Part shown: in pieces, positions 43,738 to 56,958 of the stretch | How positions within the stretch are numbered: the first letter of the stretch is position 1 | Layout of the letters: every line of letters begins with the position of its first letter | NCBI GenBank assembly: GCA_017453485.1 | Contig: JAFTEW010000058.1 | Span: 1,890-65,889 of the forward strand | From: Alphaproteobacteria bacterium | GTDB lineage: Bacteria > Pseudomonadota > Alphaproteobacteria > CAAHEQ01 > UBA3637 | DNA: 64,000 nucleotides | Reading direction: 5' to 3' | The notes under the pieces: generated by a model | The model's database searches: none | The model's input: only the letters and a program-made list of their open reading frames with translations | What the model was told of the DNA's origin: nothing | Translations under genes and position numbers: made by a program

Positions 43738-45459
43738 ATGATTATTCAAACAAAACAAGTCGGACTGTTGCTGTGTGCTTTGGCTTTATTTGTCGGTGTT
43801 GGCTTTTTAATCGGTAAACAGCAGAAAAGCACCGTTATATCCGCTACATCATCGGATTTACCGGTTTGGACGGCTCCCGTTTCTTTGGAAAATAATCAAT
43901 ACGGGGCTTACTTATCCGGTTTTTTAGCTCAACAAAATCAAGATTATGATCGGATGACAGCATCGTTTGAAAAAGCATTAGCCATTGATTCCGACAACGA
44001 AAAGCTGAAAACAACGGTCTATCTATTAAAGGCTGTTCAAGGTAAAATTGATGAAGCACTCCCTTTGGCAGCGTCCCTGGGTTCCATAAAAAAACCGGAG
44101 TTGCTGACCGATTACGTGTTGATTGCCAATGCTTTTAAGCGGGGGGATTATGATGGTACCTTACATCTGTTAAAAACAAAAACACATTATGGTCCGGATC
44201 GTGTTTTAAAACCAGCCTTACGGGCCTGGGCTTATGCCGGTCAAAACAAAAAAGCCGCTGCCGAAAAAGAGTTGGAAGTATTTAATAAGCCGCAGTCTAA
44301 ACAACTTTATTTATATTATCGGGCTTTACTGGCATTGGCTTTTGATGACCGCGACGGAGCGAATAAATTCTTCCGTCGAATGATGAAAGATCCGGCAGAA
44401 TCCTATCCTTCACTGACGGCTGTTGTATTTGTTCGTGATTTCTATATGGCCCGCGGAGAATGGAAAACAGGATTGCCGGCTTACGACCGTCTGATTCCGT
44501 TTTTGCAAAGGACACCATCTGTCCGGGATGTTATTCAAGAAATGAAATCCCCGAAACAAATGACCCCGCAAATTGGTGCCGCCATTGCTTTTTATGATGT
44601 ATCGGTAGCGTTGGCTCCTTTAAAAACGGAAGAAACAAGTTTAATTTTAAATGAATTGGCTATTTATTTGGCCCCTGATGCTTTGACACCGAAAATTTGG
44701 GGGGGAGAGTTATTGGAAAGTGCCGGAAATAATCGGGCAGCCAATCGGGTTTATGATCGTATTCCCCATCCGAATGATGTGATTATGCTGAAAAAAGTAA
44801 TGAATTTTATTGCTGTGGAAAATTATACGGATGTATTACCGTTATTACAAACGCTGTTGGACCATAATCCCGAAGATGCCTTTCTATATCGTTTGGCCGG
44901 TGAAATTTACACTGAACGGAAAGAGTATGCTACTGCCATTGATTTTTATAAAAAATCCGTTGCTTTATTTAAAAAGATGGGTTTATCCGAAGAAACTGGC
45001 CGAACATTATTTGCCTTGGGTGCGGTTTATGACGCGGCCAAACAACGGACATTGGCCGAGCAAGCTTTCTTGGAATCCGTTCGCCTGTATCCAAACAATG
45101 CCCAAGCCCTCAACTATTTGGGGTATATTTGGTTGGAACAAAACAAAAATATTGATGAAGCCTTTCAACTGGTATCTTCGGCCGCTCAGTTGGAACCGGA
45201 TGATCCCAACATCACAGATAGTTTGGCATTGGGGTATTACCGAAAAGGCGATTATACCCGGGCTTTGGAATTGGCTGAACAATCAATTGATCGCCTTTCT
45301 TACAGTTCCGTTGCATATACCCACTTGGGGGATATCTATGCAGCCCTGGGACGCCATCGCGAAGCAAAATACCAATACCGGAAAGCACTGGATTTAACCG
45401 CCGATATGACACCGGAATTAAAGCTGGAATTACACAAAAAATCAGGCCTGTCCCGATAG
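43738..45459 (+). CDS. membrane-anchored TPR repeat protein
   Basis: An N-terminal TM helix is followed by multiple TPR-like repeats (A...Y..AL.L.P.N..AL..LG). Confidence 0.7.
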   Translation: MIIQTKQVGLLLCALALFVGVGFLIGKQQKSTVISATSSDLPVWTAPVSLENNQYGAYLSGFLAQQNQDYDRMTASFEKALAIDSDNEKLKTTVYLLKAVQGKIDEALPLAASLGSIKKPELLTDYVLIANAFKRGDYDGTLHLLKTKTHYGPDRVLKPALRAWAYAGQNKKAAAEKELEVFNKPQSKQLYLYYRALLALAFDDRDGANKFFRRMMKDPAESYPSLTAVVFVRDFYMARGEWKTGLPAYDRLIPFLQRTPSVRDVIQEMKSPKQMTPQIGAAIAFYDVSVALAPLKTEETSLILNELAIYLAPDALTPKIWGGELLESAGNNRAANRVYDRIPHPNDVIMLKKVMNFIAVENYTDVLPLLQTLLDHNPEDAFLYRLAGEIYTERKEYATAIDFYKKSVALFKKMGLSEETGRTLFALGAVYDAAKQRTLAEQAFLESVRLYPNNAQALNYLGYIWLEQNKNIDEAFQLVSSAAQLEPDDPNITDSLALGYYRKGDYTRALELAEQSIDRLSYSSVAYTHLGDIYAALGRHREAKYQYRKALDLTADMTPELKLELHKKSGLSR

Positions 45460-45900
45460 GCTTTCCAACACGACCGTCCCTTTTTTCTGACGGGCGATGG
45501 TATATTGTTTTCTTAACGCATCCCGAACCATATGCGGATTCGGGATTTTATACATGCATATTGAACCCGTCATATCGGTTGAATCAATCGAAATCGTTCC
45601 CAAATTAGCCATTACATCAATCATACTTTGAGTGGTTGAACTGTTGACAATACGAAAAAGTTCAATTTCGTCAACGGTTTTACTTAAAATTCCGGTAATA
45701 ATAATAAGTCGCTGATTTGTTAAAATATAGGACCGATAAATCCGCTTTAATTTTAAAGCAATCAAAAAAATCCCCAACGTCAATACCGTTAAGATCCAAT
45801 AAACCGGGTTATATTGAACATCGGCGATAGATCCTGTCACATGCCAAATAAAGTCCTCATCATTATTGATGATATTTCGAATAATATTTTCGTTATTCAT
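45442..45900 (-). CDS. bacterial PH-domain (bPH_2 / YdbS-like) membrane protein
   Basis: A two-TM hairpin is followed by YILTNQRLIIITGILSKTVDEIELFRI, which is typical of bPH_2. Confidence 0.65.
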   Translation of the reverse strand: MNNENIIRNIINNDEDFIWHVTGSIADVQYNPVYWILTVLTLGIFLIALKLKRIYRSYILTNQRLIIITGILSKTVDEIELFRIVNSSTTQSMIDVMANLGTISIDSTDMTGSICMYKIPNPHMVRDALRKQYTIARQKKGTVVLESLSGQA

Positions 45901-45959: not shown

Positions 45960-47906
45960 CTATTTCGATCGGCCTTTTTTCTTTTTGATCGGCGGATCAA
46001 TCACTTTAAAAATCTTCACATTTGTTTTCGGATCAACATAATCCAACTGCAACCAATCCGACATATCTTTTGTTTCGTAATACACACTGTAATGAAAACT
46101 ATTTTCTAATCCGTCATAGTTCTTTTTGGTCTTCGGGTTTTTAAATAAGAATCCTAAACAATCGGGATTTTGCAACAGAACGGTGCTCACCTGATGCTTT
46201 TTCAATAATTCTTTGGCTGTTGTGAACGGTGGCCGATCCAAAGCTATCACAGCCGAATCTGTGATACCGTCCACATTGCGATCATACGGCCCGCCTAATC
46301 CCGGTCGACCGGTTTCCCAGTTGATTTGCGGAGCCGAGAATAAATCACTGAACACAGCACCATCCGCGAATGTTCCCTTCATTTTTTCCAATACCTTTTC
46401 CGACAATGAACAAGCATATCCTTTTGCGGTATTATTTTCGTTATTTTTGTTCTTGACCGTATTTTGATTAGGTTGTTCTTCTTCCTTTTCATTTTGAATA
46501 ATTTTATCAAAGCTTTCTCTTAAAAACTCGGGGATATCAATATCTTTGTTTTCCCGGTATTGGTTCAAATAGTATCTGGCTCCCCAGGATTGAAAATGCC
46601 GTAAAATGGTCACCCCTTTTATCATGGCACCAACAAAGACTAAATAAAACGCCAAAAAGATCAGACTGCGCATAAATGATTTTTCCCGAGGCGCAAAAGT
46701 CAGGTTTAAATACCCGGCACCCAAAAAGCAAAAGAACGCATTTTGACTGATTCCGGCCCGAATATGAAAAATCATAATGGTTGCATAGAACAGCGTTCCG
46801 ACAGATACCATTAACATAAAGGGAGCCATCCTGTTTTTCCCCCACCGAACAAGGCTCCATATACAAAGACACGGTGCTAACATCAACGGCAGAATGGCCA
46901 ATGTTAACAGTTCAATCCAGTTTTCGGATAACGGGCGCATTTCACTGACTTTTGATGTCCACAGGTAATACATAAACGGGTCCACCATCGGCACCAACAA
47001 AACCGAATGAAAGCCGAACAACAGCACACATCCCAAAATCATAACACCCAATAAACCATATATTAGACGACAAACTCTATTGCGCCGAACCCCCGAATAG
47101 GATAATCCCCCCATTAAAATCAGGTTAAATACGCCCAATAAAACATGAAACAGCGATGGCCTGGCAAAATCAAGCGTCCAAAATCCTGCCATCGGATGAT
47201 CAAAAGTCATAGCACCTAACAAAACGATTGTATATGCCCCCGTATAGAGCAAAGCCGGTTTCAAAGATCGATTATGCCATAACCAACCAAAAGCCATCGG
47301 AACCATCAACAAATAAATGTTGATGAAAAACTCCGGTGTTATCCATGTACCCAAAGCCGACAAAACACCGGCAGCGATAAAATAACCGTTATTTCGTTTA
47401 ACCAATAATCCGCGAGCAACAAGCCCGATACTCCACACCAACAACATAAAATGGAAACAGTGGTGGTCAAAATAACCGACAGAAGCCTGTCCCCAACTGT
47501 ATCCGATACCGCATAAAAACAGCCAGAAAGCCCCAAATGCCATCTTGGGTGTCAAATATCCCCGACAGGCAAAAAAGAACCCGCGAACCGCTACAAGCAT
47601 CACCAAGACAGGCACAAAATAAGACATGATTTCCAATGCCCTTTTTAGACCCCAATTCGGAATAAACGGCCAGGCAAAAGCATATCCGATGATATCCAAC
47701 GGCCGTGTCCAGTGCATTTCAAATCCGAAAGGATAGTTTTGTCCGAATACCACCTGTTCCCGCCAAGGGAAACCGGCATTGGCCCATTCCATAATCCGGC
47801 TCATCCGGGCCCATACATCGGTTGACCAAAAAACCGAAAACGGCACATAGACAAACAAAGTCATCAGGGCCGCTAACCAAAAAACACGCTTATAAGATGA
47901 AAACAT
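45960..47906 (-). CDS. polytopic GT-C-fold membrane glycosyltransferase, STT3/AglB-like, with C-terminal soluble domain
   Basis: First-loop Asp (STDVWARMSR; compare DPWFNYR), NYPFG...RPL, GYFDHH (compare SYDNE / archaeal DHH) and KVSEMRP (compare the SVSE EL5 motif). The WWDYG position reads SWGARYY. About 13 TM helices plus a roughly 200-aa C-terminal domain. Confidence 0.6.
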   Translation of the reverse strand: MFSSYKRVFWLAALMTLFVYVPFSVFWSTDVWARMSRIMEWANAGFPWREQVVFGQNYPFGFEMHWTRPLDIIGYAFAWPFIPNWGLKRALEIMSYFVPVLVMLVAVRGFFFACRGYLTPKMAFGAFWLFLCGIGYSWGQASVGYFDHHCFHFMLLVWSIGLVARGLLVKRNNGYFIAAGVLSALGTWITPEFFINIYLLMVPMAFGWLWHNRSLKPALLYTGAYTIVLLGAMTFDHPMAGFWTLDFARPSLFHVLLGVFNLILMGGLSYSGVRRNRVCRLIYGLLGVMILGCVLLFGFHSVLLVPMVDPFMYYLWTSKVSEMRPLSENWIELLTLAILPLMLAPCLCIWSLVRWGKNRMAPFMLMVSVGTLFYATIMIFHIRAGISQNAFFCFLGAGYLNLTFAPREKSFMRSLIFLAFYLVFVGAMIKGVTILRHFQSWGARYYLNQYRENKDIDIPEFLRESFDKIIQNEKEEEQPNQNTVKNKNNENNTAKGYACSLSEKVLEKMKGTFADGAVFSDLFSAPQINWETGRPGLGGPYDRNVDGITDSAVIALDRPPFTTAKELLKKHQVSTVLLQNPDCLGFLFKNPKTKKNYDGLENSFHYSVYYETKDMSDWLQLDYVDPKTNVKIFKVIDPPIKKKKGRSK

Positions 47907-48830
47907 TTATTGTTCCTTTTGATAAAGAGGGGTAGCCAAATACTTCATACGCCGAAATTCCTGTCGGGATTTAGCCACGGAATCCAAGATCAGAGCCAAT
48001 GTTAAACTGACACCGGCGCACAGCATCAGCCCGACGGATAAAATGGTTGTCGGCACCCGCGGGACAAGACCCGTTTGCCAGTATTCATAAATAACCGGAA
48101 TGGCACACAATACCGACAAAACCGCCAACCCGACGGCACCCAATCCGAAAAACAGTAAAGGTCTTTCTTCCTTGATTAACAAAGCAATCATTTTTAATAT
48201 CCGCCATCCATCTTTAAAGGTAGACAATTTACTGACCGACCCTTCTGGCCTGGCATAATACGGTGTTTCATAATCCGCAACCGGCAATCGCATAGAAGCT
48301 GAAAAAACCGTCAGTTCCGTTTCGATTTCAAACCCCTTGGAATTGGCCGGATAGGCTTTCACAAACCGCCGGGAAAAAACACGCAATCCGGACAACATAT
48401 CTTCTGTCTGCTTCCCGAAAAACAAATGCACAATTTTGGTCATCAATCTGTTTCCAAACTGATGACCTGCCCGATAGGCCTGTTCGGATTGACTTTTACG
48501 AACACCCGTCACCATATCCAAATTTTCATTGATAAGTTTATCAATCATTTGTGGAACACTGGCAATATCATAAGTTGCATCCCCATCTGTCATCACATAA
48601 ACATCGGCTTCCACATCGGCAAACATACGCCGAACAACATTTCCTTTGCCCTGATGTGTTTCACTGCGCACAATGGCACCGGCATCCCGCGCCACCTGAA
48701 CCGTGTTATCCTTTGAATTATTGTCATAAACATAAACCATCGCCTGGGGCAGGTATTTATGACACTCTTTAACCACCTGCCCGATAGCCAGTTCTTCGTT
48801 ATAACAGGGAATTAAAATCGCTATTTTCAT
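47907..48830 (-). CDS. GT2 polyprenyl-phosphate glycosyltransferase (GtrB/ArnC/DPM1-like)
   Basis: IAILIPCYNEE...YDNNSKDNT...DGDATYD (DxD) followed by two C-terminal TM helices. Confidence 0.85.
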   Translation of the reverse strand: MKIAILIPCYNEELAIGQVVKECHKYLPQAMVYVYDNNSKDNTVQVARDAGAIVRSETHQGKGNVVRRMFADVEADVYVMTDGDATYDIASVPQMIDKLINENLDMVTGVRKSQSEQAYRAGHQFGNRLMTKIVHLFFGKQTEDMLSGLRVFSRRFVKAYPANSKGFEIETELTVFSASMRLPVADYETPYYARPEGSVSKLSTFKDGWRILKMIALLIKEERPLLFFGLGAVGLAVLSVLCAIPVIYEYWQTGLVPRVPTTILSVGLMLCAGVSLTLALILDSVAKSRQEFRRMKYLATPLYQKEQ

Positions 48831-48842
48831 AGTAAACTCCTT

Positions 48843-50465
48843 TCATCTTTTTTCTTGATCCGCCATTTCCAAAATAAAACGATCCGTTTGACCGGGGGCC
48901 ACATCTATGCCACGCCAAATACCGTCTTTGATTTGTCCCGCAACAATAATGGTATCACCGACCCAATTTTCGGGATTTCCTGGTTTCAAATTGATTTCTT
49001 GCCGAGGGAACAAATCCGGATTTTTTTCAAACATCTGTTTCACTTTTGCTATCGATGAAATAATCAATACTTTTTTGTCCCTCAATAAATCATAATAGGT
49101 CTGTTTTGTTTGCTTATCCCACGGCAACGGTGCCGTCAATGTGGCCAACGGCCAACCCAGGACCGGATTACTTGTTTTGATATACGGCACGACATATGAA
49201 TTTAAATTTTCCGCAACGGCCACGATCGTATCATCGGCCACCGTTATCGTTGTCATCGGCATATATGTTTCATTTGAAACGGTTCGAAAGGAGGAATAAC
49301 CGAACGGAAAAAGAACAGATACAACGACCAGCATTCCGGCTAAAATCCGTTTGATTCTTTCTGTCATTTTAAACCGTTTTATCATAAGAAAGATCATCAA
49401 GCCCGATAAGACTTCTAACACAATTGCATACCGTAGAATGGAGAACAACACCAACCACACCACATAGGAAACATCATAAAGTAAGACAACTGCCTGTTCC
49501 CGCCGCTCTTTTATTTTTCCGACCAGACACATTCCTGTCAAAGCAATAGCACAAATAAACGGAATAATGGCGTGATATATTTTTTCTTTTAATTCCGGTT
49601 CCGTCATATATCCCGAATCCGTTCCCCAATAAAGCGGATAAAACAGCCATTGACCGATTGTTTGCGGTAAAAAGCGGATATCCCGAACACTTTCCGCCGG
49701 TATCAACGACGATTTAAAAATATGATTAGCCATCGGGAAAATCGGATTGCCCGTTTTTTGCCAAACCAAATATAACCACCATCCATCCGTCAGACCAAAC
49801 CCGATTAAAAATCCGATTGAGATGATCAACAGTGCCTTTATCGGCCGTTTAAACTGACCGATTGCGGCACAAAACAAAACCAAAGCCCCAAAGCCGACGC
49901 ACATCGGAAAAATCGTTAATTTTAACCCCAGAACGCCCCCAACCAAACCGCTGATACCAAATAGGAGCCATTCAGATGCTTTTTTTTCAAAAAATACTTT
50001 CTTTACAAACAGATAAAAAGCCGTCAGGAATATGATGGCACAGGTTATTTCATGTGTTGTGCTTCCGATTTGTTGCGTATAAGCATATCCCGTTATGGCA
50101 TATAGCAACAAAGCAACCATCATCCACAGATCTGTTTTATTTTTCACTGGTATGAATAACCGCAATATGGCCCAGGCTATTAAAATGATCACTCCGTGAA
50201 AAGCACCATTCATAAAAAAGATAAGTTGCGGATAATTGTTAAATGTCTTTATTTGCAAATACGTCAAACTATCCAACAGCGGCGCAAAGAAAGTGTAAGC
50301 CCCCGATACAAAATAGTTTGAAAAAGTCTTACCGTTTAAAAAGGCCCATCCGTTATAAAAATGATAATTGTGCAAATCATACCAAATTTCGTTCCTGGAA
50401 TAAGCCGCCCACCATCCGCAGCAAAGCAAAACCAATATCGGTAAGAGGTATTTAATATGCCGCAT
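48843..50465 (-). CDS. polytopic membrane protein, putative GT-C glycosyltransferase (DUF2029/PimE-like)
   Basis: At least 11 predicted TM helices, a first-loop WYDLHNYHFYNGWAFLNG motif and a C-terminal soluble domain of about 140 aa. The start is at the internal ATG (MRHIKYLL). The ORF-track start is 50498. Confidence 0.55.
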   Translation of the reverse strand: MRHIKYLLPILVLLCCGWWAAYSRNEIWYDLHNYHFYNGWAFLNGKTFSNYFVSGAYTFFAPLLDSLTYLQIKTFNNYPQLIFFMNGAFHGVIILIAWAILRLFIPVKNKTDLWMMVALLLYAITGYAYTQQIGSTTHEITCAIIFLTAFYLFVKKVFFEKKASEWLLFGISGLVGGVLGLKLTIFPMCVGFGALVLFCAAIGQFKRPIKALLIISIGFLIGFGLTDGWWLYLVWQKTGNPIFPMANHIFKSSLIPAESVRDIRFLPQTIGQWLFYPLYWGTDSGYMTEPELKEKIYHAIIPFICAIALTGMCLVGKIKERREQAVVLLYDVSYVVWLVLFSILRYAIVLEVLSGLMIFLMIKRFKMTERIKRILAGMLVVVSVLFPFGYSSFRTVSNETYMPMTTITVADDTIVAVAENLNSYVVPYIKTSNPVLGWPLATLTAPLPWDKQTKQTYYDLLRDKKVLIISSIAKVKQMFEKNPDLFPRQEINLKPGNPENWVGDTIIVAGQIKDGIWRGIDVAPGQTDRFILEMADQEKR

Positions 50466-50895
50466 CTTGCCTTTTCCTTCCCATTGGCCGAAACGCAATA
50501 TATTTCAACATCAAATAACTGTTGACTGTCACCAGTATCAAGGCAATGGCTTGGGATAAATACGGGTTCATATCCAACCACAAAAATACCGCTAACAACC
50601 CGGCATTCAACACATAACTGACCCCCCACCCCATCAGGCAACGTATATATTCATTTACATAATTACCGCGGGTATTAAATACATAAAATTTTTGTGTCAG
50701 ATAACCATTCACGGATGAAACAACAAAGGCCCAAAATAACGCCGCTTGCGGATTAACCTTCAAAAAGACAAACATCGTATATAAAGCATAAGAAACAAGG
50801 GTGTTATAACCGCCCACCAGTATATATCTGATTTTTTCCGGAAATCGCATCCAGAATTGAAATAAAATACCATACCATTTTATCAGTTGTTGCAT
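50452..50895 (-). CDS. GtrA-family membrane protein (polyprenyl-P-sugar flippase-like)
   Basis: Four TM helices, with the pattern R(Y)ILVGGYNTLVSYALY...YLTQKFYVF typical of GtrA. Confidence 0.75.
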   Translation of the reverse strand: MQQLIKWYGILFQFWMRFPEKIRYILVGGYNTLVSYALYTMFVFLKVNPQAALFWAFVVSSVNGYLTQKFYVFNTRGNYVNEYIRCLMGWGVSYVLNAGLLAVFLWLDMNPYLSQAIALILVTVNSYLMLKYIAFRPMGRKRQDAAY

Positions 50896-53497: not shown

Positions 53498-53573
<76 letters not shown>

Positions 53574-53598
53574 AAGCCTTTTTAACAAAGGCTTTTTT
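53574..53598. terminator. bidirectional terminator shared by tRNA-Ala and the convergent four-gene operon
   Basis: AAAGCCTT-tttaaca-AAGGCTTT followed by TTT. The 8-bp stem starts at the terminal A of the CCA (53573). The stop codon of the minus-strand 159-aa ORF lies in the T-run. Confidence 0.65.
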
Positions 53599-54076
53599 AT
53601 ATGCTTTTTTCCATATTCATACCCGTCGGCAATTTCTTTTGAATCGGCTGAATCATATAGTTCAAAAAATCCACAAAAGTTGCAAAATGCAGGATGACCT
53701 GATAGGTGTATCTGTCCAATAATTGATATTCCTTGACACTGAAATCATAAACAATCAAAGTTTCCCACCCGTATCCCAATAACAATTTTTTTCGCATCAC
53801 GGCATTATTTTGGCAAAATTGATAATTTTGCAAAATACCGGGATGATGAAAAGCCCCCTTATTTCGTTCAATGTTTTCCAAAGAAAACAAATCCACGCCA
53901 TTCCAAGATAATCCGTTTGTCATCGCCAAAAAGGATACATAATCCAACGGAATGGGGGGCACACCGGCCTTAACTAATTTGACAGAAGTCTGTTGCACCA
54001 ATTTCGGCTCAATGGCCGGAAAAACAACGGCATAATTTTCATACAGACATTTTAAGCATTGTTTTAATTCAGACAT
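53597..54076 (-). CDS. SUKH-1 (SMI1/KNR4)-like putative immunity protein
   Basis: ...GVPPIPLDYVSFLAMTNGLSWNGVDLFSL... and the C-terminal ...LLLGYGWETLIVYDFSVKEYQLLDRYTYQV...FATFVDFL match the SMI1_KNR4 pattern (LP.dY..FL...NG; ig..g....l.d; sF.eFL). The gene starts 4 nt after the HNH-like gene. Confidence 0.6.
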   Translation of the reverse strand: MSELKQCLKCLYENYAVVFPAIEPKLVQQTSVKLVKAGVPPIPLDYVSFLAMTNGLSWNGVDLFSLENIERNKGAFHHPGILQNYQFCQNNAVMRKKLLLGYGWETLIVYDFSVKEYQLLDRYTYQVILHFATFVDFLNYMIQPIQKKLPTGMNMEKSI

Positions 54077-54080
54077 CGGA

Positions 54081-54761
54081 TTACCTCCCCGGCATTGTTT
54101 TTAGGGCTATATCCCGCAAAGCACTTTGGGTAAAGCCCGACAAAACAGAACGGTCTTGTTTATTTTTACCGCCGGAACCGGTAAACAATCCCATCGGGAT
54201 ATACACTTTCCCCCGTGGTACCGGCACATAAAGTTGCTTCGGAGTCAGATATCCTTCCGGTCCGATAATTTGTTTATCAATATAGCGATGGATTAAATCG
54301 TGAAACGGACGAGCCTGGATAAAGACCATATTCTCAAAAGAGATTGTTCCACCATAATCCAACGGATATTTTAGATGGACAACAAAATTTTCAGGTTGTT
54401 GTCCCCGTTTCATATAGAATAATCCTTCTTCCGTCACGCCGGCTGAGCGTAAATCATTGGCGTGATGATAGGATAAAAAACGTACAAAGTCACGGATAGT
54501 CCGATTTAATTGTTTCTGACGACCGATCAGATCCGAATTATCCTGTGCATAATGATTAACCGCCATTAAATCCATACCCGGAAAATTCATGCTGTTAAAC
54601 AAATTTTCCCAGTAAGCCTGCCCCTGTTCTTCCAATTGTAAATTGTTCAGTTCGGCATCATCAAACAAGGGTGTTTCCAACAACTGATTCCAATCGCTGA
54701 ATACATCTTCCGCATTCAATGTGGTTGACAAGGACAGTTGTTCCGTTTTTTCTGTTGTCAT
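54081..54761 (-). CDS. putative nuclease toxin/effector with colicin-DNase-like HNH (beta-beta-alpha-Me) domain
   Basis: DFVRFLS...MKRGQQP...VVHLKYPLDYGGTISFENMVFIQARPFHDLIH aligns by eye with colicin E9 DNase DFRKKFW...MKVGKAP...[32 protein letters not shown]. The N-terminal ~110 aa are acidic, there is no signal peptide, and the C-terminal tail is basic. Confidence 0.6.
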   Translation of the reverse strand: MTTEKTEQLSLSTTLNAEDVFSDWNQLLETPLFDDAELNNLQLEEQGQAYWENLFNSMNFPGMDLMAVNHYAQDNSDLIGRQKQLNRTIRDFVRFLSYHHANDLRSAGVTEEGLFYMKRGQQPENFVVHLKYPLDYGGTISFENMVFIQARPFHDLIHRYIDKQIIGPEGYLTPKQLYVPVPRGKVYIPMGLFTGSGGKNKQDRSVLSGFTQSALRDIALKTMPGR

Positions 54762-54762
54762 T

Positions 54763-56958
54763 TTATGCCTTTAATTGTTCGTCGTCGTCTTCCAATTCCA
54801 ACATATCATTCTGCATTAAGGCTCGCAAAGCAGCCATATCCGTTTCTTCCCGTTGGGCAACCACCCAATATGGGACAAACGGTGCCGTCGGTAAAGAGCA
54901 TTTTTTACGCATTTTTTTATCCAAATACCAACGGGGCGCATCCGCCAAAATCGGCCGATTTAAAAAGCCCTGAAATAAGACATATTGTTTTAACATATTC
55001 AAACTCATCATTTCGGAAGCTCCAACAACATTGGAACTTTGTAATGAGCGGGATACGTTGGCCGCAAACGGATTTGTCTGCATAGACACCCCTTCCGTCC
55101 GAGATGAACTGGCCACTTCAATGGTCCGCGAACCAATCATTTTAGAAAACCGTTCAGCGGTTTGTTCATTGTTTTGGGCTAAAATAACTTTGGCGGCCGT
55201 TGTTGTAATGATTGTTTCCAAATCATCTTTTCCATATTGACCGGAAATTTGTCCCAAATCTTGTCCGATTAACAAATAAGCCACTTTTTGCCCCCGTCCG
55301 ACAGCCGGTCCGTCTTTAACGGCAGCTAATTTCGGCATTTGCGGGAATTCGTCCAAGACAAATAACACCGGATAAGGTCCGACTTTAACCCCATCTGACC
55401 CCATATCATTCGGCTTATTGGAAATCAGGTATGAACTCATCAATTCAACAAACACACCTGTAATCACGTTTAATGTCCGGGCATCAACCTGATTAACTGA
55501 CAAGTAAACCGATATTGGCTTCATTTCACCGGTAATGGGATCAATCATTCCCCGCAAATCACGGAAGGTTAAATCACTGAATTTTGTCCGTGTCCGAACA
55601 GCCGAGTTTTTAAAGATGTTAATGCCGGAAAATGCCGTTGACAAAATAGATCCGCGTTCCTTGTCCGGAGTTCCGGCTAACTGTGATAATTCAACTGTCG
55701 CCCGTCGGGCATAACCGAATCGTTCACTTTCGGCAATTGCCAATTTTAACGCATCTGCCCCGGCATCTGCAAAAGCCGCCGCCTGATCCCCTTCATCTTG
55801 GCGCCGTTTTAAGTCGGCATTAATTTTCATTTGGATATCTGTCCACCAATCAAAAATCATAGCAATACACGGCTCATTTCCTTGCCAACTTTCCGGCAAA
55901 CCTTCCCAGGTTCCGACCGGTGCATAATTATCCAACGTCAGCGTTCCCTCTTTTAACGCTTCCAGAGAAATACGCGCACTCGGATCTGTCATATCCATAT
56001 AATAGGTTTCCAATACTTCGGCATCTTCTTTATCAAACGATCCTTCACTCAATTTTGAAATAAAGTAATCATTGGCTCTGGCCCGCTCGCATTTACTGCA
56101 AATAAAGTGTAGAAAACCGGACATAGCGTTTCGTCCTGTTTTAGACCAGTGCGGATCTGCTCCGCCTTTCGGTTCTTCTACCAAGACCGCCACCATTGAG
56201 TCAATATACATATCCCGGCCCGGCCCTAACGGTGGCAAACAAGTTGGGGATAACGGGTTCCAACTGGGATAATAAACACCTTTTTCCGGATCATCCTCGG
56301 CTCCCCAGTTAATCACAAAGACCGGTCCTTGTGTTGCCCGATACCCAGACGTGTTATAACACAATTCAGGTTTGGGGTCGTTAATAATTAAACTTAATCC
56401 CGGTGATTCCAATATGGTTGGGATCACAACCCCAGCTGTTTTACCGGTTCCCGGAGGTGCCACCACCAAAGCCGATAACGTTTCCGGCATTTTCAATAAT
56501 TTTCCCTTAAATCGTCCCAAGACAATGACAAAGCCCTTAAAAAGTCCCATTTTTTCAACATCAGCATAGGTTGCTTTTCGGCCGCTGCCAAACACATTGG
56601 GGCGATAACTATAAGGATTTGTCACAATGCGATAGACAACAAAAGCACCGGATAAAACAAATGCCATATAGGGTAAATACAAAATCGGAGATGGATTATT
56701 GGTTGTTTTTAAAACGCCCAGATACTGGCGAAAAACACCGACGATTCCACTCAACGGAGAAACAACAGACGGCTTCCAAACTTTTGTCCATGCCCATCCA
56801 AGGGATTCAACCCCGAAACCGACCAAAACAAAATTAACCACCGGAATAAAAATAAGCAACAACAGCCACGTCAACGGTATCGCTAAAAAGAAACTTAATA
56901 AAATTCTGGCAATACACTTTTGTTGTTCTTCGTATGCTTCGTCTCGTTTAAAAGCCAT
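54763..56958 (-). CDS. virD4: VirD4/TraG-family type IV coupling protein (T4CP)-like ATPase
   Basis: Two N-terminal TM helices, FGSGRKATYADVEKMGLF (compare hGsArwA), Walker A APPGTGKTAGVVIPT, Walker B PVLFVLDEFPQM and IGQDLGQISGQYGKD...TAERFSKMIG. The C-terminus is acidic (ELEDDDEQLKA). Confidence 0.85.
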   Translation of the reverse strand: MAFKRDEAYEEQQKCIARILLSFFLAIPLTWLLLLIFIPVVNFVLVGFGVESLGWAWTKVWKPSVVSPLSGIVGVFRQYLGVLKTTNNPSPILYLPYMAFVLSGAFVVYRIVTNPYSYRPNVFGSGRKATYADVEKMGLFKGFVIVLGRFKGKLLKMPETLSALVVAPPGTGKTAGVVIPTILESPGLSLIINDPKPELCYNTSGYRATQGPVFVINWGAEDDPEKGVYYPSWNPLSPTCLPPLGPGRDMYIDSMVAVLVEEPKGGADPHWSKTGRNAMSGFLHFICSKCERARANDYFISKLSEGSFDKEDAEVLETYYMDMTDPSARISLEALKEGTLTLDNYAPVGTWEGLPESWQGNEPCIAMIFDWWTDIQMKINADLKRRQDEGDQAAAFADAGADALKLAIAESERFGYARRATVELSQLAGTPDKERGSILSTAFSGINIFKNSAVRTRTKFSDLTFRDLRGMIDPITGEMKPISVYLSVNQVDARTLNVITGVFVELMSSYLISNKPNDMGSDGVKVGPYPVLFVLDEFPQMPKLAAVKDGPAVGRGQKVAYLLIGQDLGQISGQYGKDDLETIITTTAAKVILAQNNEQTAERFSKMIGSRTIEVASSSRTEGVSMQTNPFAANVSRSLQSSNVVGASEMMSLNMLKQYVLFQGFLNRPILADAPRWYLDKKMRKKCSLPTAPFVPYWVVAQREETDMAALRALMQNDMLELEDDDEQLKA

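Follow-up and report, generated by a model that had tools for sequence, protein, structure and literature searches.

If a polytopic membrane protein has the build of an STT3-type oligosaccharyltransferase and lacks the WWDYG signature of that family, from what donor does it take its sugar, and to what does it transfer it? To address this question we examined a stretch of 64,000 nucleotides (the window) from a gut alphaproteobacterium. There such a protein, 648 amino acids (aa) long, is encoded in a four-gene, minus-strand operon together with a GtrA-like protein, a second polytopic protein with a GT-C fold and a GT2 glycosyltransferase. In the order of transcription the features are:

50452..50895, minus strand: gtrA, 147 aa, the first gene of the operon (Pfam PF04138 at 3.1e-17)
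48843..50465, minus strand: polytopic GT-C-fold gene, 540 aa from the ATG at 50465
48843-50498, minus strand: longer version of the same gene, 551 aa from the TTG at 50498
47907..48830, minus strand: GT2 gene, 307 aa (PF00535 at 1.7e-16)
45960..47906, minus strand: STT3-like gene, 648 aa

The open reading frames were re-found on the minus strand at these positions, with gaps of -14, 12 and 0 nt along the operon, in agreement with the initial annotation. The ATG at 50465 is also the start taken for the identical database protein P0045 (540 aa). A promoter-like TTGACA...TAGGTT can be read in the sequence directly 5' of gtrA. Since each of the four genes has many conserved homologues, and since the N-terminus of the 648-aa protein (M1, F2) is nearly invariant, we take all four to be real.

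To what family does the 648-aa protein belong? At E<=1 it matches no Pfam model, those of the GT66 oligosaccharyltransferases (PF02516 with PF21436/PF22627; STT3, AglB_core and STT3-PglB_core) included, and none of the PMT and PMT_2 models either; with the curated model TIGR04154, whose cut-off is 450 bits, it scores 16. Residues 1-452 hold 13 predicted transmembrane (TM) helices, which a linker (453-494) joins to a periplasmic domain at the C-terminus (~495-648) that resembles the CC unit. The AF2 model (pLDDT 85, pTM 0.85) finds, as its 22 best Foldseek matches, AglB, STT3, PglB and DPY19 only (E 1e-11 to 4e-5, TMq 0.50-0.65), the first 18 of which are AglB, STT3 and PglB (E 1.6e-11 to 8.7e-7, TMq 0.52-0.65). 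The best are AglB 7e9s at 1.6e-11 and yeast STT3 8agc at 2.1e-11 (TMq 0.62); human STT3B 6s7t reaches a TMq of 0.65, PglB 5ogl lies at 7.7e-7 (TMq 0.53) and DPY19 at ~2e-6 (TMq 0.57-0.62). For ArnT, ALG3, Pmt4 and AftB, TMq does not exceed 0.34.

Two other identities were considered and rejected. As an ArnT or PMT (GT83 / GT39; lipid A or O-mannosyl transferases) the protein would be a poor fit: ArnT 5f15 reaches E 2.3e-3 and a TMq of 0.32, Pmt4 a TMq of 0.34. DPY19 as the closest relative falls below all AglB and STT3 structures and both high-scoring PglB complexes, some 5 orders of magnitude in E-value from the best match.

Sequence profiles lead to the same superfamily by a longer route. 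The NCBIfam model archaeo_STT3 matches the 648-aa protein at E 0.0027 (aa 25-383) and 30 of 46 broader relatives, the best at 3e-17. A profile of the protein's own clade (A1) has no match, and hence no STT3, in the PDB, and aligned directly by hhalign with P0230, an STT3 that scores above the Pfam cut-offs for STT3 and AglB_core, it reaches a probability of 8%. A1 aligns with a profile of the broader family (A2) at 100% probability (E 1.4e-75, aa 29-647), and A2 in turn aligns with P0230 at 97.1% (E 5e-11), as does profile A5 at 96.9% (E 1.5e-10). A2 also matches the C-terminal domain structures of two short A. fulgidus AglB paralogues, AfAglB-S2 (3vu0, 1.3e-6) and AfAglB-S1 (3vgp, 2.7e-6) (PMC3703281), and aa 495-647 of the window protein align with the profile region that matches the AglB CC unit. 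We conclude that, judged by its predicted structure and by this transitive chain of profiles, the 648-aa protein belongs to the STT3/AglB/PglB superfamily as a genuine, if strongly diverged, member. The initial annotation had called it STT3/AglB-like; both the Foldseek ranking and the profiles bear this out against an ArnT/PMT-like identity. Of the two outcomes that the annotation had named as contrary to it, a firm place in a non-STT3 GT-C family and the disappearance of the motif matches on alignment, neither was observed.

Are the catalytic residues retained? All the strings picked out by eye beforehand are present in the protein at the positions read from the sequence: TDVWARMSR at 29-37, NYPFG at 57-61, GYFDHH at 144-149, KVSEMRP at 319-325 and SWGARYY at 440-446. 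Alignments with P0230 pair D30 with D, GYFDHH with GYTDHH, KVSEMRPL with tVgEMvPL, R383 with R and DLFSA with WWDEG, and hhalign to PglB places GYFDHH on GYYDTD. Their counterparts in PglB are D56 (EL1, the first DXD), D154-x-D156 (the second DXD) and E319 (EL5, of the TIXE/SVSE motif). Conservation at these positions is nearly complete: D30 in 65/65 sequences, D147 in 64/65, H149 in 63/65, E322 in 64/65 and R383 in 64/65. The triplet D147-H148-H149 is kept in 63-64/65, and DHH is found in 193 of 196 relatives. E322, within K-V-S-E-M, falls in the loop that joins predicted TM9 to TM10. In AfAglB the corresponding residues are Asp47, Asp161 and His163 (of 'Asp-His-His') and Glu360 (PMC8342417). 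By these alignments the metal-dependent catalytic apparatus is kept, with D30 as candidate EL1 Asp, D147 and H149 as candidate metal ligands of the second motif, E322 as candidate EL5 Glu and R383 as a candidate phosphate-binding residue. Of the by-eye landmarks, three, TDVW (D30), GYFDHH (D147/H149) and KVSEM (E322), survive proper alignment; SWGARYY had been misplaced.

The WWDYG motif of oligosaccharyltransferases forms the pocket for the +2 Ser/Thr of the sequon. Its absence, claimed earlier, is confirmed: the 648-aa protein has no WW dipeptide, and WWDxG occurs in 0/196 relatives while it is present in both STT3 controls. The slot itself had been sought at SWGARYY, which in fact sits on a long helix after the last TM segment; profile alignments put it instead at D521-L-F-S-A525, in the C-terminal globular domain. 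Over the family the slot is variable save for a final G/A, and is followed by P-E/Q; in the window protein there follow the family-specific P526 and then G-G-P-Y-D-R-N at 538-544. The alignments showed no recognisable DK or MI motif, variant DK motifs being identifiable only by 3-D comparison (PMC3703281).

How widespread are such proteins? The family comprises 1,601 representative clusters at 50% identity, from Alphaproteobacteria, Dehalococcoidia/Chloroflexota, Nitrospirota, Clostridia, Gemmatimonadales, Myxococcales and others, and no Pfam or NCBIfam model claims it. The statement that among bacteria STT3-like proteins are rare outside Campylobacterota and Desulfobacterota thus fails for this WWDYG-less branch. 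Its members are ~20% identical overall and keep the catalytic-site residues at 97-100%. The taxon labels derive from metagenome-assembled genomes, and at least one (L012) looks wrong.

The partners of the STT3-like gene suggest a donor. The 307-aa GT2 consists of a GT-A domain with a single DxD (D82-G-D84), followed by two C-terminal hydrophobic helices (226-244 and 263-281), as the initial annotation had it. It matches the NCBIfam AglJ model TIGR04182 over the full model length at 2.6e-55, yet under the model's cut-off, and its closest relatives in the PDB are the Dol-P-Man synthase 5mlz (5.6e-7) and then ArnC (1.2e-5). It is a polyprenyl-phosphate glycosyltransferase of the AglJ/DPM1/ArnC type, and we infer that it makes the donor, a lipid-monophosphate-linked monosaccharide. 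The gtrA product, recognised by PF04138, is a small membrane protein of the GtrA/DPMS-TM family and a putative flippase, or flippase helper, for the polyprenyl-phosphate-sugar. In the close clade a GT2 orthologue (68-79% identity) adjoins the STT3-like gene in 10 of 13 informative loci, and a gtrA homologue stands directly upstream of it in 11. The linkage to the GT2 extends across phyla: an orthologue of 51-60% identity adjoins at least nine loci of the broader family, among them loci from Dehalococcoidia, Chloroflexota, Holosporaceae and Kiloniellaceae. Among 107 neighbours of the broader family the only clearly recurrent families are GT2 (12) and GtrA (6); an adjoining GT2 or GtrA is missing in some family loci (L005, L007, L011, L015). 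With GtrA, GT2 and GT-C-fold members all recognised and their linkage conserved, the description of the operon as a polyprenyl-phosphate-sugar module holds.

What of the other polytopic protein? The 540-aa protein matches nothing in Pfam and, by sequence, nothing in the PDB. With its AF2 model (pLDDT 85, pTM 0.89), every significant Foldseek match is a GT-C enzyme, the best being ArnT 5f15 (E 1.7e-4, TM 0.49). Two GT-C-fold proteins are therefore encoded in the operon, and they had been described as paralogues; that relation is rejected, hhalign giving a probability of 1.2%. Homologues of the 540-aa protein (29-31% identity) occupy the same position in only 3/13 informative close-clade loci (L010, L021, L022). 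By its model it is a GT-C-fold glycosyltransferase of an unplaced family, an accessory of the module that is variably present.

Taken together, these observations lead us to assign a probability of roughly 0.7 to the reading in which the 648-aa protein acts in the periplasm as a transferase derived from STT3, takes a polyprenyl-monophosphate monosaccharide as donor and works with the GT2 and GtrA on a non-sequon acceptor. On the cytoplasmic side, the AglJ/DPM1-type GT2 would take one sugar from a nucleotide sugar and load it onto undecaprenyl (polyprenyl) monophosphate; GtrA would help the lipid-linked sugar across the membrane; and the STT3-like enzyme would then move the monosaccharide to a periplasmic acceptor other than the Asn-X-Ser/Thr sequon. 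In this genome the unrelated 540-aa GT-C probably uses the same donor for another acceptor. What the data show is the fold, the homology, which motifs are kept and which are lost, and the conserved linkage of the genes; the type of donor, suggested by the gene neighbourhood only, the order of events and the class of acceptor are inferred, a non-sequon acceptor being a reasonable supposition. Monophosphate lipid donors are used by euryarchaeal AglBs (PMC8342417), and the STT3-related, metal-independent DPY19 uses Dol-P-Man (PMC10154233).

What might the acceptor be? One answer, which we hold to be quite possible at somewhat less than even odds, is a glycan or lipid of the envelope (the LPS core, lipid A, O-antigen, capsule, EPS or a membrane glycolipid), the STT3 fold having been recruited for a non-protein acceptor. 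Such acceptors are decorated by GtrC, ArnT, YfhO and GacL in other three-component systems of the GtrA/GtrB type. The order gtrA-GT2-GT-C is that of known three-component systems that modify glycans or lipids (PMC8035078). The same operon holds a second GT-C, whose fold weakly resembles that of ArnT, and one locus of the broader family (L006) stands amid GT87, UbiA and HAD genes of the kind usual in the synthesis of lipid-linked glycans. On the other hand, the fold is clearly unlike ArnT or PMT, all the characterised top fold matches (STT3, AglB, PglB, DPY19) glycosylate peptides, and the window contains no LPS or O-antigen genes nearby. Since the family includes members labelled Dehalococcoidia and Clostridia, a single conserved LPS acceptor is excluded. 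The same distribution, over these lineages and diderms alike, argues for a universal acceptor such as proteins, and so favours a periplasmic protein N-glycosyltransferase with altered recognition, in which D30 and E322 would activate the Asn carboxamide and a single hexose would pass from Und-P-hexose to a non-canonical site. Both acidic residues with which oligosaccharyltransferases surround the acceptor amide and the metal show ~98-100% conservation; by sequence the family comes closest to euryarchaeal AglB models and domains, and its partner GT2 to AglJ. If this were so, bacteria would possess a minimal N-glycosylation pathway like that of AglJ plus AglB. We nevertheless consider it unlikely: the WWDYG pocket is missing in 196/196 members, the alignments yield no DK or MI motif, and no candidate target protein recurs among the 107 neighbours. 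The EL1 Asp, moreover, is common to all GT-C enzymes and its conservation is therefore uninformative on the acceptor, and the taxon labels on which the distribution depends are MAG-derived, at least one being apparently wrong.

Could the protein instead be a conventional oligosaccharyltransferase, a PglB or AglB orthologue with a divergent, overlooked WWDYG, transferring a lipid-diphosphate-linked oligosaccharide to Asn-X-Ser/Thr? Its fold and catalytic motifs are of the STT3 type, but the idea is scarcely credible when the slot aligns unambiguously as DLFSA and varies over the family at all but its last position, when the protein has no WW at all, and when the Pfam models STT3 and AglB_core do not recognise it. 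Nor are there nearby an initiating phosphoglycosyltransferase, a Wzx-type flippase, extra glycosyltransferases or assembly genes of the pgl or agl kind; as partners, GtrA and a GT2 of the polyprenyl-monophosphate type are conserved. An inactive or non-enzymatic membrane protein with the STT3 fold, serving for example as a scaffold or in the recycling of the lipid carrier, would accord with the absence of the family from curated libraries, but is very improbable given the tight linkage to a donor-making GT2 and the near-invariance of the catalytic site in so divergent a family.

How does the proposed STT3-derived monosaccharide transferase compare with known systems? Archaeal AglB (AfAglB-S1/S2, ~590 aa; euryarchaeal TIGR04154) shares with it a 13-TM STT3 fold, a minimal C-terminal CC-unit domain and a similar length, as well as the Asp-His-His second DXD, the EL1 Asp, the EL5 Glu in a V/I-x-E context and the conserved Arg; euryarchaeal AglBs take lipid-monophosphate donors, with an AglJ-type GT2 in the same archaeal pathway. 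In contrast to AglB, the 648-aa family lacks WWDYG (it has x-x-x-x-G/A, then P-E/Q), carries its own PYH(R)N motif and fails the curated STT3/AglB models; it is bacterial and GtrA-linked, and its donor would be a monosaccharide rather than an oligosaccharide. Campylobacter PglB has a similar fold (Foldseek E ~8e-7, TMq 0.53), with GYFDHH on its G-Y-Y-D154-T-D156, but the WWDYG, the MI motif, the Und-PP-heptasaccharide and a pgl locus that also encodes PglC, PglK and several glycosyltransferases do not apply here. DPY19, with 13 TM and a luminal dome, is likewise a GT-C related to STT3; it has abandoned the N-X-S/T sequon, and its donor is a monosaccharide on a polyprenyl monophosphate (Dol-P-Man). 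The analogy is incomplete: DPY19, a eukaryotic enzyme, works independently of metal, has Glu71 as its base and recognises a WxxW sequon, whereas the 648-aa family keeps the Asp-His-His metal ligands of STT3, so that a DPY19-type site was rejected, and is nearer AglB/STT3 by E-value and sequence. Finally, GtrA/GtrB/GtrC, ArnC/ArnT and CsbB/GtcA/YfhO follow the same logic of a GT2 synthase, a small GtrA-family protein and a periplasmic GT-C (PMC8035078); their transferase is of the GtrC, ArnT or YfhO type, whereas here, with ArnT at a TMq of 0.32, it is of the STT3 type.

The operon at 45960–50895 consists of four co-directional open reading frames on the minus strand. Their coordinates bear out the gaps of −14, +12 and 0 nt described in the initial annotation, given that the second gene starts at the ATG at 50465, as it does in P0045, a database protein identical to its 540-residue product. 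The proteins of the window are 100% identical to those of an uncultured ‘Alphaproteobacteria bacterium’ MAG. The flanks of the operon in the window are housekeeping genes, encoding TsaB, RimI, UDG, a TPR protein, QueH, a LOG-like protein and a flavin reductase-rubredoxin.

Features of the operon and its surroundings (window positions)
54763–56958, minus: VirD4/TraG-type type IV coupling protein (PF02534, 1e-52), beyond the housekeeping genes
53597–54761, minus: two small ORFs after the VirD4/TraG gene, without a Pfam family
53498–53573, plus: tRNA-Ala(CGC) gene adjoining the VirD4/TraG gene and the small ORFs
50452–50895, minus: gtrA, 147 aa (PF04138, 3e-17)
48843–50498, minus: polytopic GT-C gene, 551 aa from a TTG, 540 aa from the ATG at 50465
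47907–48830, minus: GT2 gene, 307 aa (PF00535, 1.7e-16)
45960–47906, minus: polytopic gene, 648 aa, no Pfam family (2025 copy) at E ≤ 1
45442–45900, minus: bPH_2 (PF03703) bacterial PH domain membrane protein, 152 aa, 59 nt downstream of the 648-aa gene, with a promoter-like site of its own

An integrated conjugative element may have its border here, where the VirD4/TraG gene and the two small ORFs lie next to the tRNA gene, some 3 kb from the operon. The bPH_2 gene adjoins no homologue of the 648-aa gene in the loci compared; since it is never conserved there, it probably lies outside the module.

What kind of enzyme is the 648-residue protein? The only direct hint from its sequence was the NCBIfam archaeal STT3 model TIGR04154 (16 bits, E 0.0027, residues 25–383). 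Neither phmmer nor an hmmsearch with the profile of its close clade (A1) matched a GT-C enzyme of any kind among all PDB sequences, so the clade cannot be placed from sequence alone. The AlphaFold2 model, built with 41 homologues, is confident (pLDDT 85, pTM 0.85) and comprises about 13 transmembrane helices, a disordered linker (478–494) and a C-terminal alpha/beta domain.

Foldseek matches of the 648-residue model in the PDB
AfAglB 7e9s: E 1.6e-11, TMq 0.57
Yeast STT3 8agc: E 2.1e-11, TMq 0.62
Human STT3B 6s7t: E 4.2e-11, TMq 0.65
PglB 5ogl: E 7.7e-7, TMq 0.53
DPY19 7zlg and 7zli: E 2e-6 and 5e-6, TMq 0.57 and 0.62
ArnT 5f15: E 2.3e-3, TMq 0.32
ALG3, Pmt4 and AftB: E 3e-3 to 4e-2, TMq 0.30–0.34

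Because the best 22 matches are all AglB, STT3, PglB or DPY19, the protein is STT3-like, as first proposed. Membership of ArnT or PMT, with TMq of 0.32 for ArnT and 0.34 for Pmt4, is ruled out by the fold.

Direct hhalign comparisons of A1 with PglB (22% probability) and with P0230, a Pfam-positive STT3 reference (8%), placed the motifs correctly but were weak, and for this reason the placement in the superfamily went through two intermediates: A2, an alignment of 46 relatives from the broader family, and A5, a merged alignment headed by the window protein. A1 aligns with A2 at 100% probability (E 1.4e-75) over residues 29–647, covering both domains. TIGR04154 matches 30 of the 46 A2 relatives (best 3e-17), and Pfam STT3 matches three, weakly. 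The A2 profile in turn finds P0230 and P0231, both of which clear Pfam's cut-offs for STT3 (1.3e-18) and AglB_core-like (6e-13), and reaches two PDB entries, 3vu0 (1.3e-6) and 3vgp (2.7e-6), each the crystallised C-terminal globular domain of a short A. fulgidus AglB paralogue (PMC3703281). P0230 aligns with A2 and A5 at 97% probability (E 5e-11 and 1.5e-10) over some 480–500 columns.

Which of the active-site residues are retained? All the strings quoted in the initial annotation are present, at residues 29–37, 57–61, 144–149, 319–325 and 440–446, and three of those picked out by eye as STT3 landmarks, TDVW, GYFDHH and KVSEM, are correct, because alignment and conservation alike place them on STT3 motifs.

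Correspondence between the window protein and P0230, from hhalign with A2 and A5
T-D30-V-W with p-D-a-W: EL1 Asp
G-Y-F-D147-H-H149 with G-Y-T-D-H-H: second DXD motif
K-V-S-E322-M-R-P-L with t-V-g-E-M-v-P-L: EL5 Glu
R383 with R: conserved Arg
D521-L-F-S-A525 with W-W-D-E-G: WWDYG slot

GYFDHH also aligns with G-Y-Y-D154-T-D156 of PglB (the PglB query was validated beforehand, scoring 886 bits with 5ogl and 624 with 3aag). In AfAglB the metal ligands are Asp47 together with Asp161 and His163 of the ‘Asp-His-His’ motif, while Glu360 of the TIXE motif contributes via waters (PMC8342417). Among 65 superfamily sequences, which share no more than some 20% identity with the window protein, D30 is conserved in all 65, D147, H148, E322 and R383 in 64 each, and H149 in 63. 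NYPFG, also proposed as a landmark, is a conserved family motif (N57, P59, G61) and at most a candidate equivalent of an STT3 one.

The WWDYG slot is another matter. It had been assigned to SWGARYY, an assignment that the alignments refute by placing the slot at DLFSA, residues 521–525. No WW dipeptide occurs anywhere in the protein. Nor do the alignments show a recognisable DK or MI motif, though variant DK motifs emerge only from 3-D comparison (PMC3703281). Across the 65 sequences the slot varies at every position but the last, a G or A; the family-specific P526 and E/Q come next. Beyond it lies a near-invariant motif, P-Y541-H-x-N, with the histidine in 58 of the 65; in the window protein and those closest to it, D542 stands in its place (GGPYDRN; codon at 46281–46283). 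Among 196 full-length relatives DHH is kept in 193 and WWDxG in none, while both STT3 controls were positive. Two cysteines of the C-terminal domain, C499 and C583 (codons 46410–46412 and 46158–46160), are invariant in the close clade, and C499 recurs in 42 of the 65 broader sequences; this pattern is consistent with a periplasmic disulfide.

The protein thus shares with STT3 the fold, the three catalytic motifs and the CC domain, and it lacks WWDYG and falls short of the curated family thresholds. On these grounds, and judging from predicted structure and a transitive chain of profiles, we assign it to a new branch of the STT3 superfamily that is devoid of WWDYG, and do not class it as an oligosaccharyltransferase.

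What might be the donor? The GT2 protein has a single DxD (D82-G-D84) and, at its C-terminus, two hydrophobic helices. Among curated models AglJ fits it best (TIGR04182, 2.6e-55, over the full model length, below the cut-off), with a haloarchaeal dolichyl-phosphate hexose transferase and PpgS next; among solved structures, the Dol-P-Man synthase 5mlz (5.6e-7) and ArnC (1.2e-5) match it best. By these similarities it is a predicted polyprenyl-phosphate glycosyltransferase. GtrA is encoded directly upstream in 11 of 13 informative species-level loci of the close clade, and a GT2 orthologue (68–79% identity) stands between GtrA and the STT3-like gene in 10 of them. The same orthologue (51–60% identity, E down to 1e-113) adjoins the STT3-like gene in at least nine loci of the broader family, from Dehalococcoidia, Chloroflexota, Holosporaceae, Kiloniellaceae and other Pseudomonadota. 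In a Pfam census of 107 neighbouring ORFs at about 30 broader-family loci, GT2 (12) and GtrA (6) were the only clearly recurrent families, followed by FAD amine oxidases (4) and methyltransferases (3). From this conserved linkage we propose a polyprenyl-monophosphate monosaccharide as the donor. The proposal is reasonable since it has two precedents: euryarchaeal AglBs already use monophosphate lipid donors, and DPY19, another STT3-related enzyme, uses Dol-P-Man.

The 540-residue protein stands apart. It has no sequence match in Pfam or the PDB. Its AlphaFold model is confident (pLDDT 85, pTM 0.89) and finds GT-C enzymes only, weakly and without preference: ArnT matches at E 1.7e-4 and TM 0.49, and STT3A/B, Pmt4 and ALG9 match about as well. 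The suggestion that the operon holds two GT-C paralogues is not borne out, there being no detectable relation between the two proteins (hhalign probability 1.2%). A homologue (29–31% identity) accompanies only three of the 13 close-clade loci; others occur in Rhodanobacter, Dyella, Paraburkholderia and Elusimicrobia. We conclude that it is an accessory, unplaced GT-C.

How widespread is the STT3-like family? The close family comprises 44 clusters at 90% identity, none with a Pfam domain, nearly all from uncultured gut or rumen MAGs and mostly labelled Alphaproteobacteria. With the family profile as query, HMMER searched exhaustively gave 1,601 representative clusters (50% identity) at E ≤ 1e-3, of which 850 reach E ≤ 1e-10; among the matches listed, all but some 12 close-clade entries (some of them fragments) are about 560–660 residues long and score about 118–175 bits. 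The phyletic spread rests on the taxon labels of MAGs, which can be wrong: two members of the close clade, at the locus L012 (CAYPVK010000008.1) and the protein P0030, 46–47% identical and with the same GtrA–GT2–STT3-like layout, carry the label ‘Lactobacillales bacterium’, probably through a mistake in binning or taxonomy. The source annotations of relatives read only ‘hypothetical protein’, and no curated model in Pfam (2025 copy), NCBIfam release 20 or the PDB claims the family. NCBIfam NF047440, the uncharacterised ‘LA_3751/LA_3752 family putative glycosyltransferase’ of Leptospira, weakly matches eight of the 46 A2 proteins (best 6e-7) and may belong to this superfamily as a further branch. 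Lombard 2016 reported only ‘a few bacterial homologues’ of STT3 (PMC4973528). Full-text literature searches turned up no account of bacterial STT3-like proteins that lack WWDYG; our coverage was incomplete and an earlier description is possible.

Several loci of the broader family stand out. Tandem STT3-like paralogues occur in L008 (6001–7827 and 7815–9641), L033 (2579–4471 and 4526–6397) and L036; in L008 the two genes, of 608 aa each, are followed by a convergent GT2 orthologue. This arrangement suggests duplication for different acceptors served by one common donor. In L006 (5333–13195) the family member adjoins a divergent GtrA and an FAD amine oxidase, with a GT87, a UbiA prenyltransferase and a HAD phosphatase downstream, a layout that recalls decaprenyl-phosphate-sugar pathways; Amino_oxidase/NAD_binding_8 proteins lie beside the family in four of about 30 loci. 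In L007 (2507–8899) the family member sits amid Tad/Flp pilus genes: upstream are those for Flp pilin, prepilin peptidase, RcpC and secretin, and directly downstream come two TadE genes, a possible hint that a pilin is the acceptor in that lineage.

How, then, might the module work? Our best reading, to which we give a probability of about 0.7, is a three-component transfer of a monosaccharide from a putative Und-P-sugar donor to a periplasmic acceptor. GT2 would form the Und-P-sugar in the cytoplasm, GtrA would aid its flipping, and the STT3-like enzyme would pass the monosaccharide to an acceptor that is not read through the +2 Ser/Thr pocket. Catalysis would depend on a metal by way of D30, D147 and H149, E322 lying on EL5 and R383 at the phosphate. 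That a protein keeping these residues is inactive seems very unlikely, and a conventional oligosaccharyltransferase is scarcely to be expected.

What would the acceptor be? The operon has the logic of known three-component systems that modify glycans and lipids, and by analogy with the Gtr, Arn and YfhO systems a glycan or lipid is perhaps the acceptor, at somewhat less than even odds; a universal LPS acceptor is ruled out, since the family occurs in lineages labelled Dehalococcoidia and Clostridia. Those same lineages count in favour of a protein acceptor, as does the fact that all the characterised enzymes among the best fold matches glycosylate peptides. Against it stand the operon logic and the neighbourhood, in which no plausible acceptor protein recurs among the 107 ORFs; a protein is a less likely acceptor, and one modified at Asn an unlikely one. 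It is conceivable, if doubtful, that the STT3-like branch and its AglJ-like GT2 constitute an unrecognised general protein glycosylation system. Such a system would be a minimal one of euryarchaeal type, widespread in diderm and monoderm phyla; it would take one sugar from undecaprenyl-monophosphate and attach it to Asn or some other residue of proteins in the periplasm or at the surface, under a recognition rule other than N-X-S/T.

STT3/AglB/PglB is the signature enzyme of N-glycosylation, and in bacteria it has hitherto been viewed as a rare import from archaea. The 1,601 clusters represent a branch, widespread in bacteria, that has the catalytic core without the sequon-reading motif and is consistently tied to a lipid-monophosphate-sugar synthase. 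The family offers a testable route to what may be new chemistry of protein or envelope glycosylation in bacteria, natural data on which parts of the oligosaccharyltransferase active site are separable from sequon recognition, and new small single-subunit scaffolds for glyco-engineering. The 648-residue transferase would fill the same working role as its counterpart in the three-component GtrA/GtrB/GT-C systems, on the scaffold of STT3. The branch would be a bacterial counterpart to eukaryotic DPY19, in which the STT3 scaffold has likewise been turned to monosaccharide transfer under another acceptor rule.
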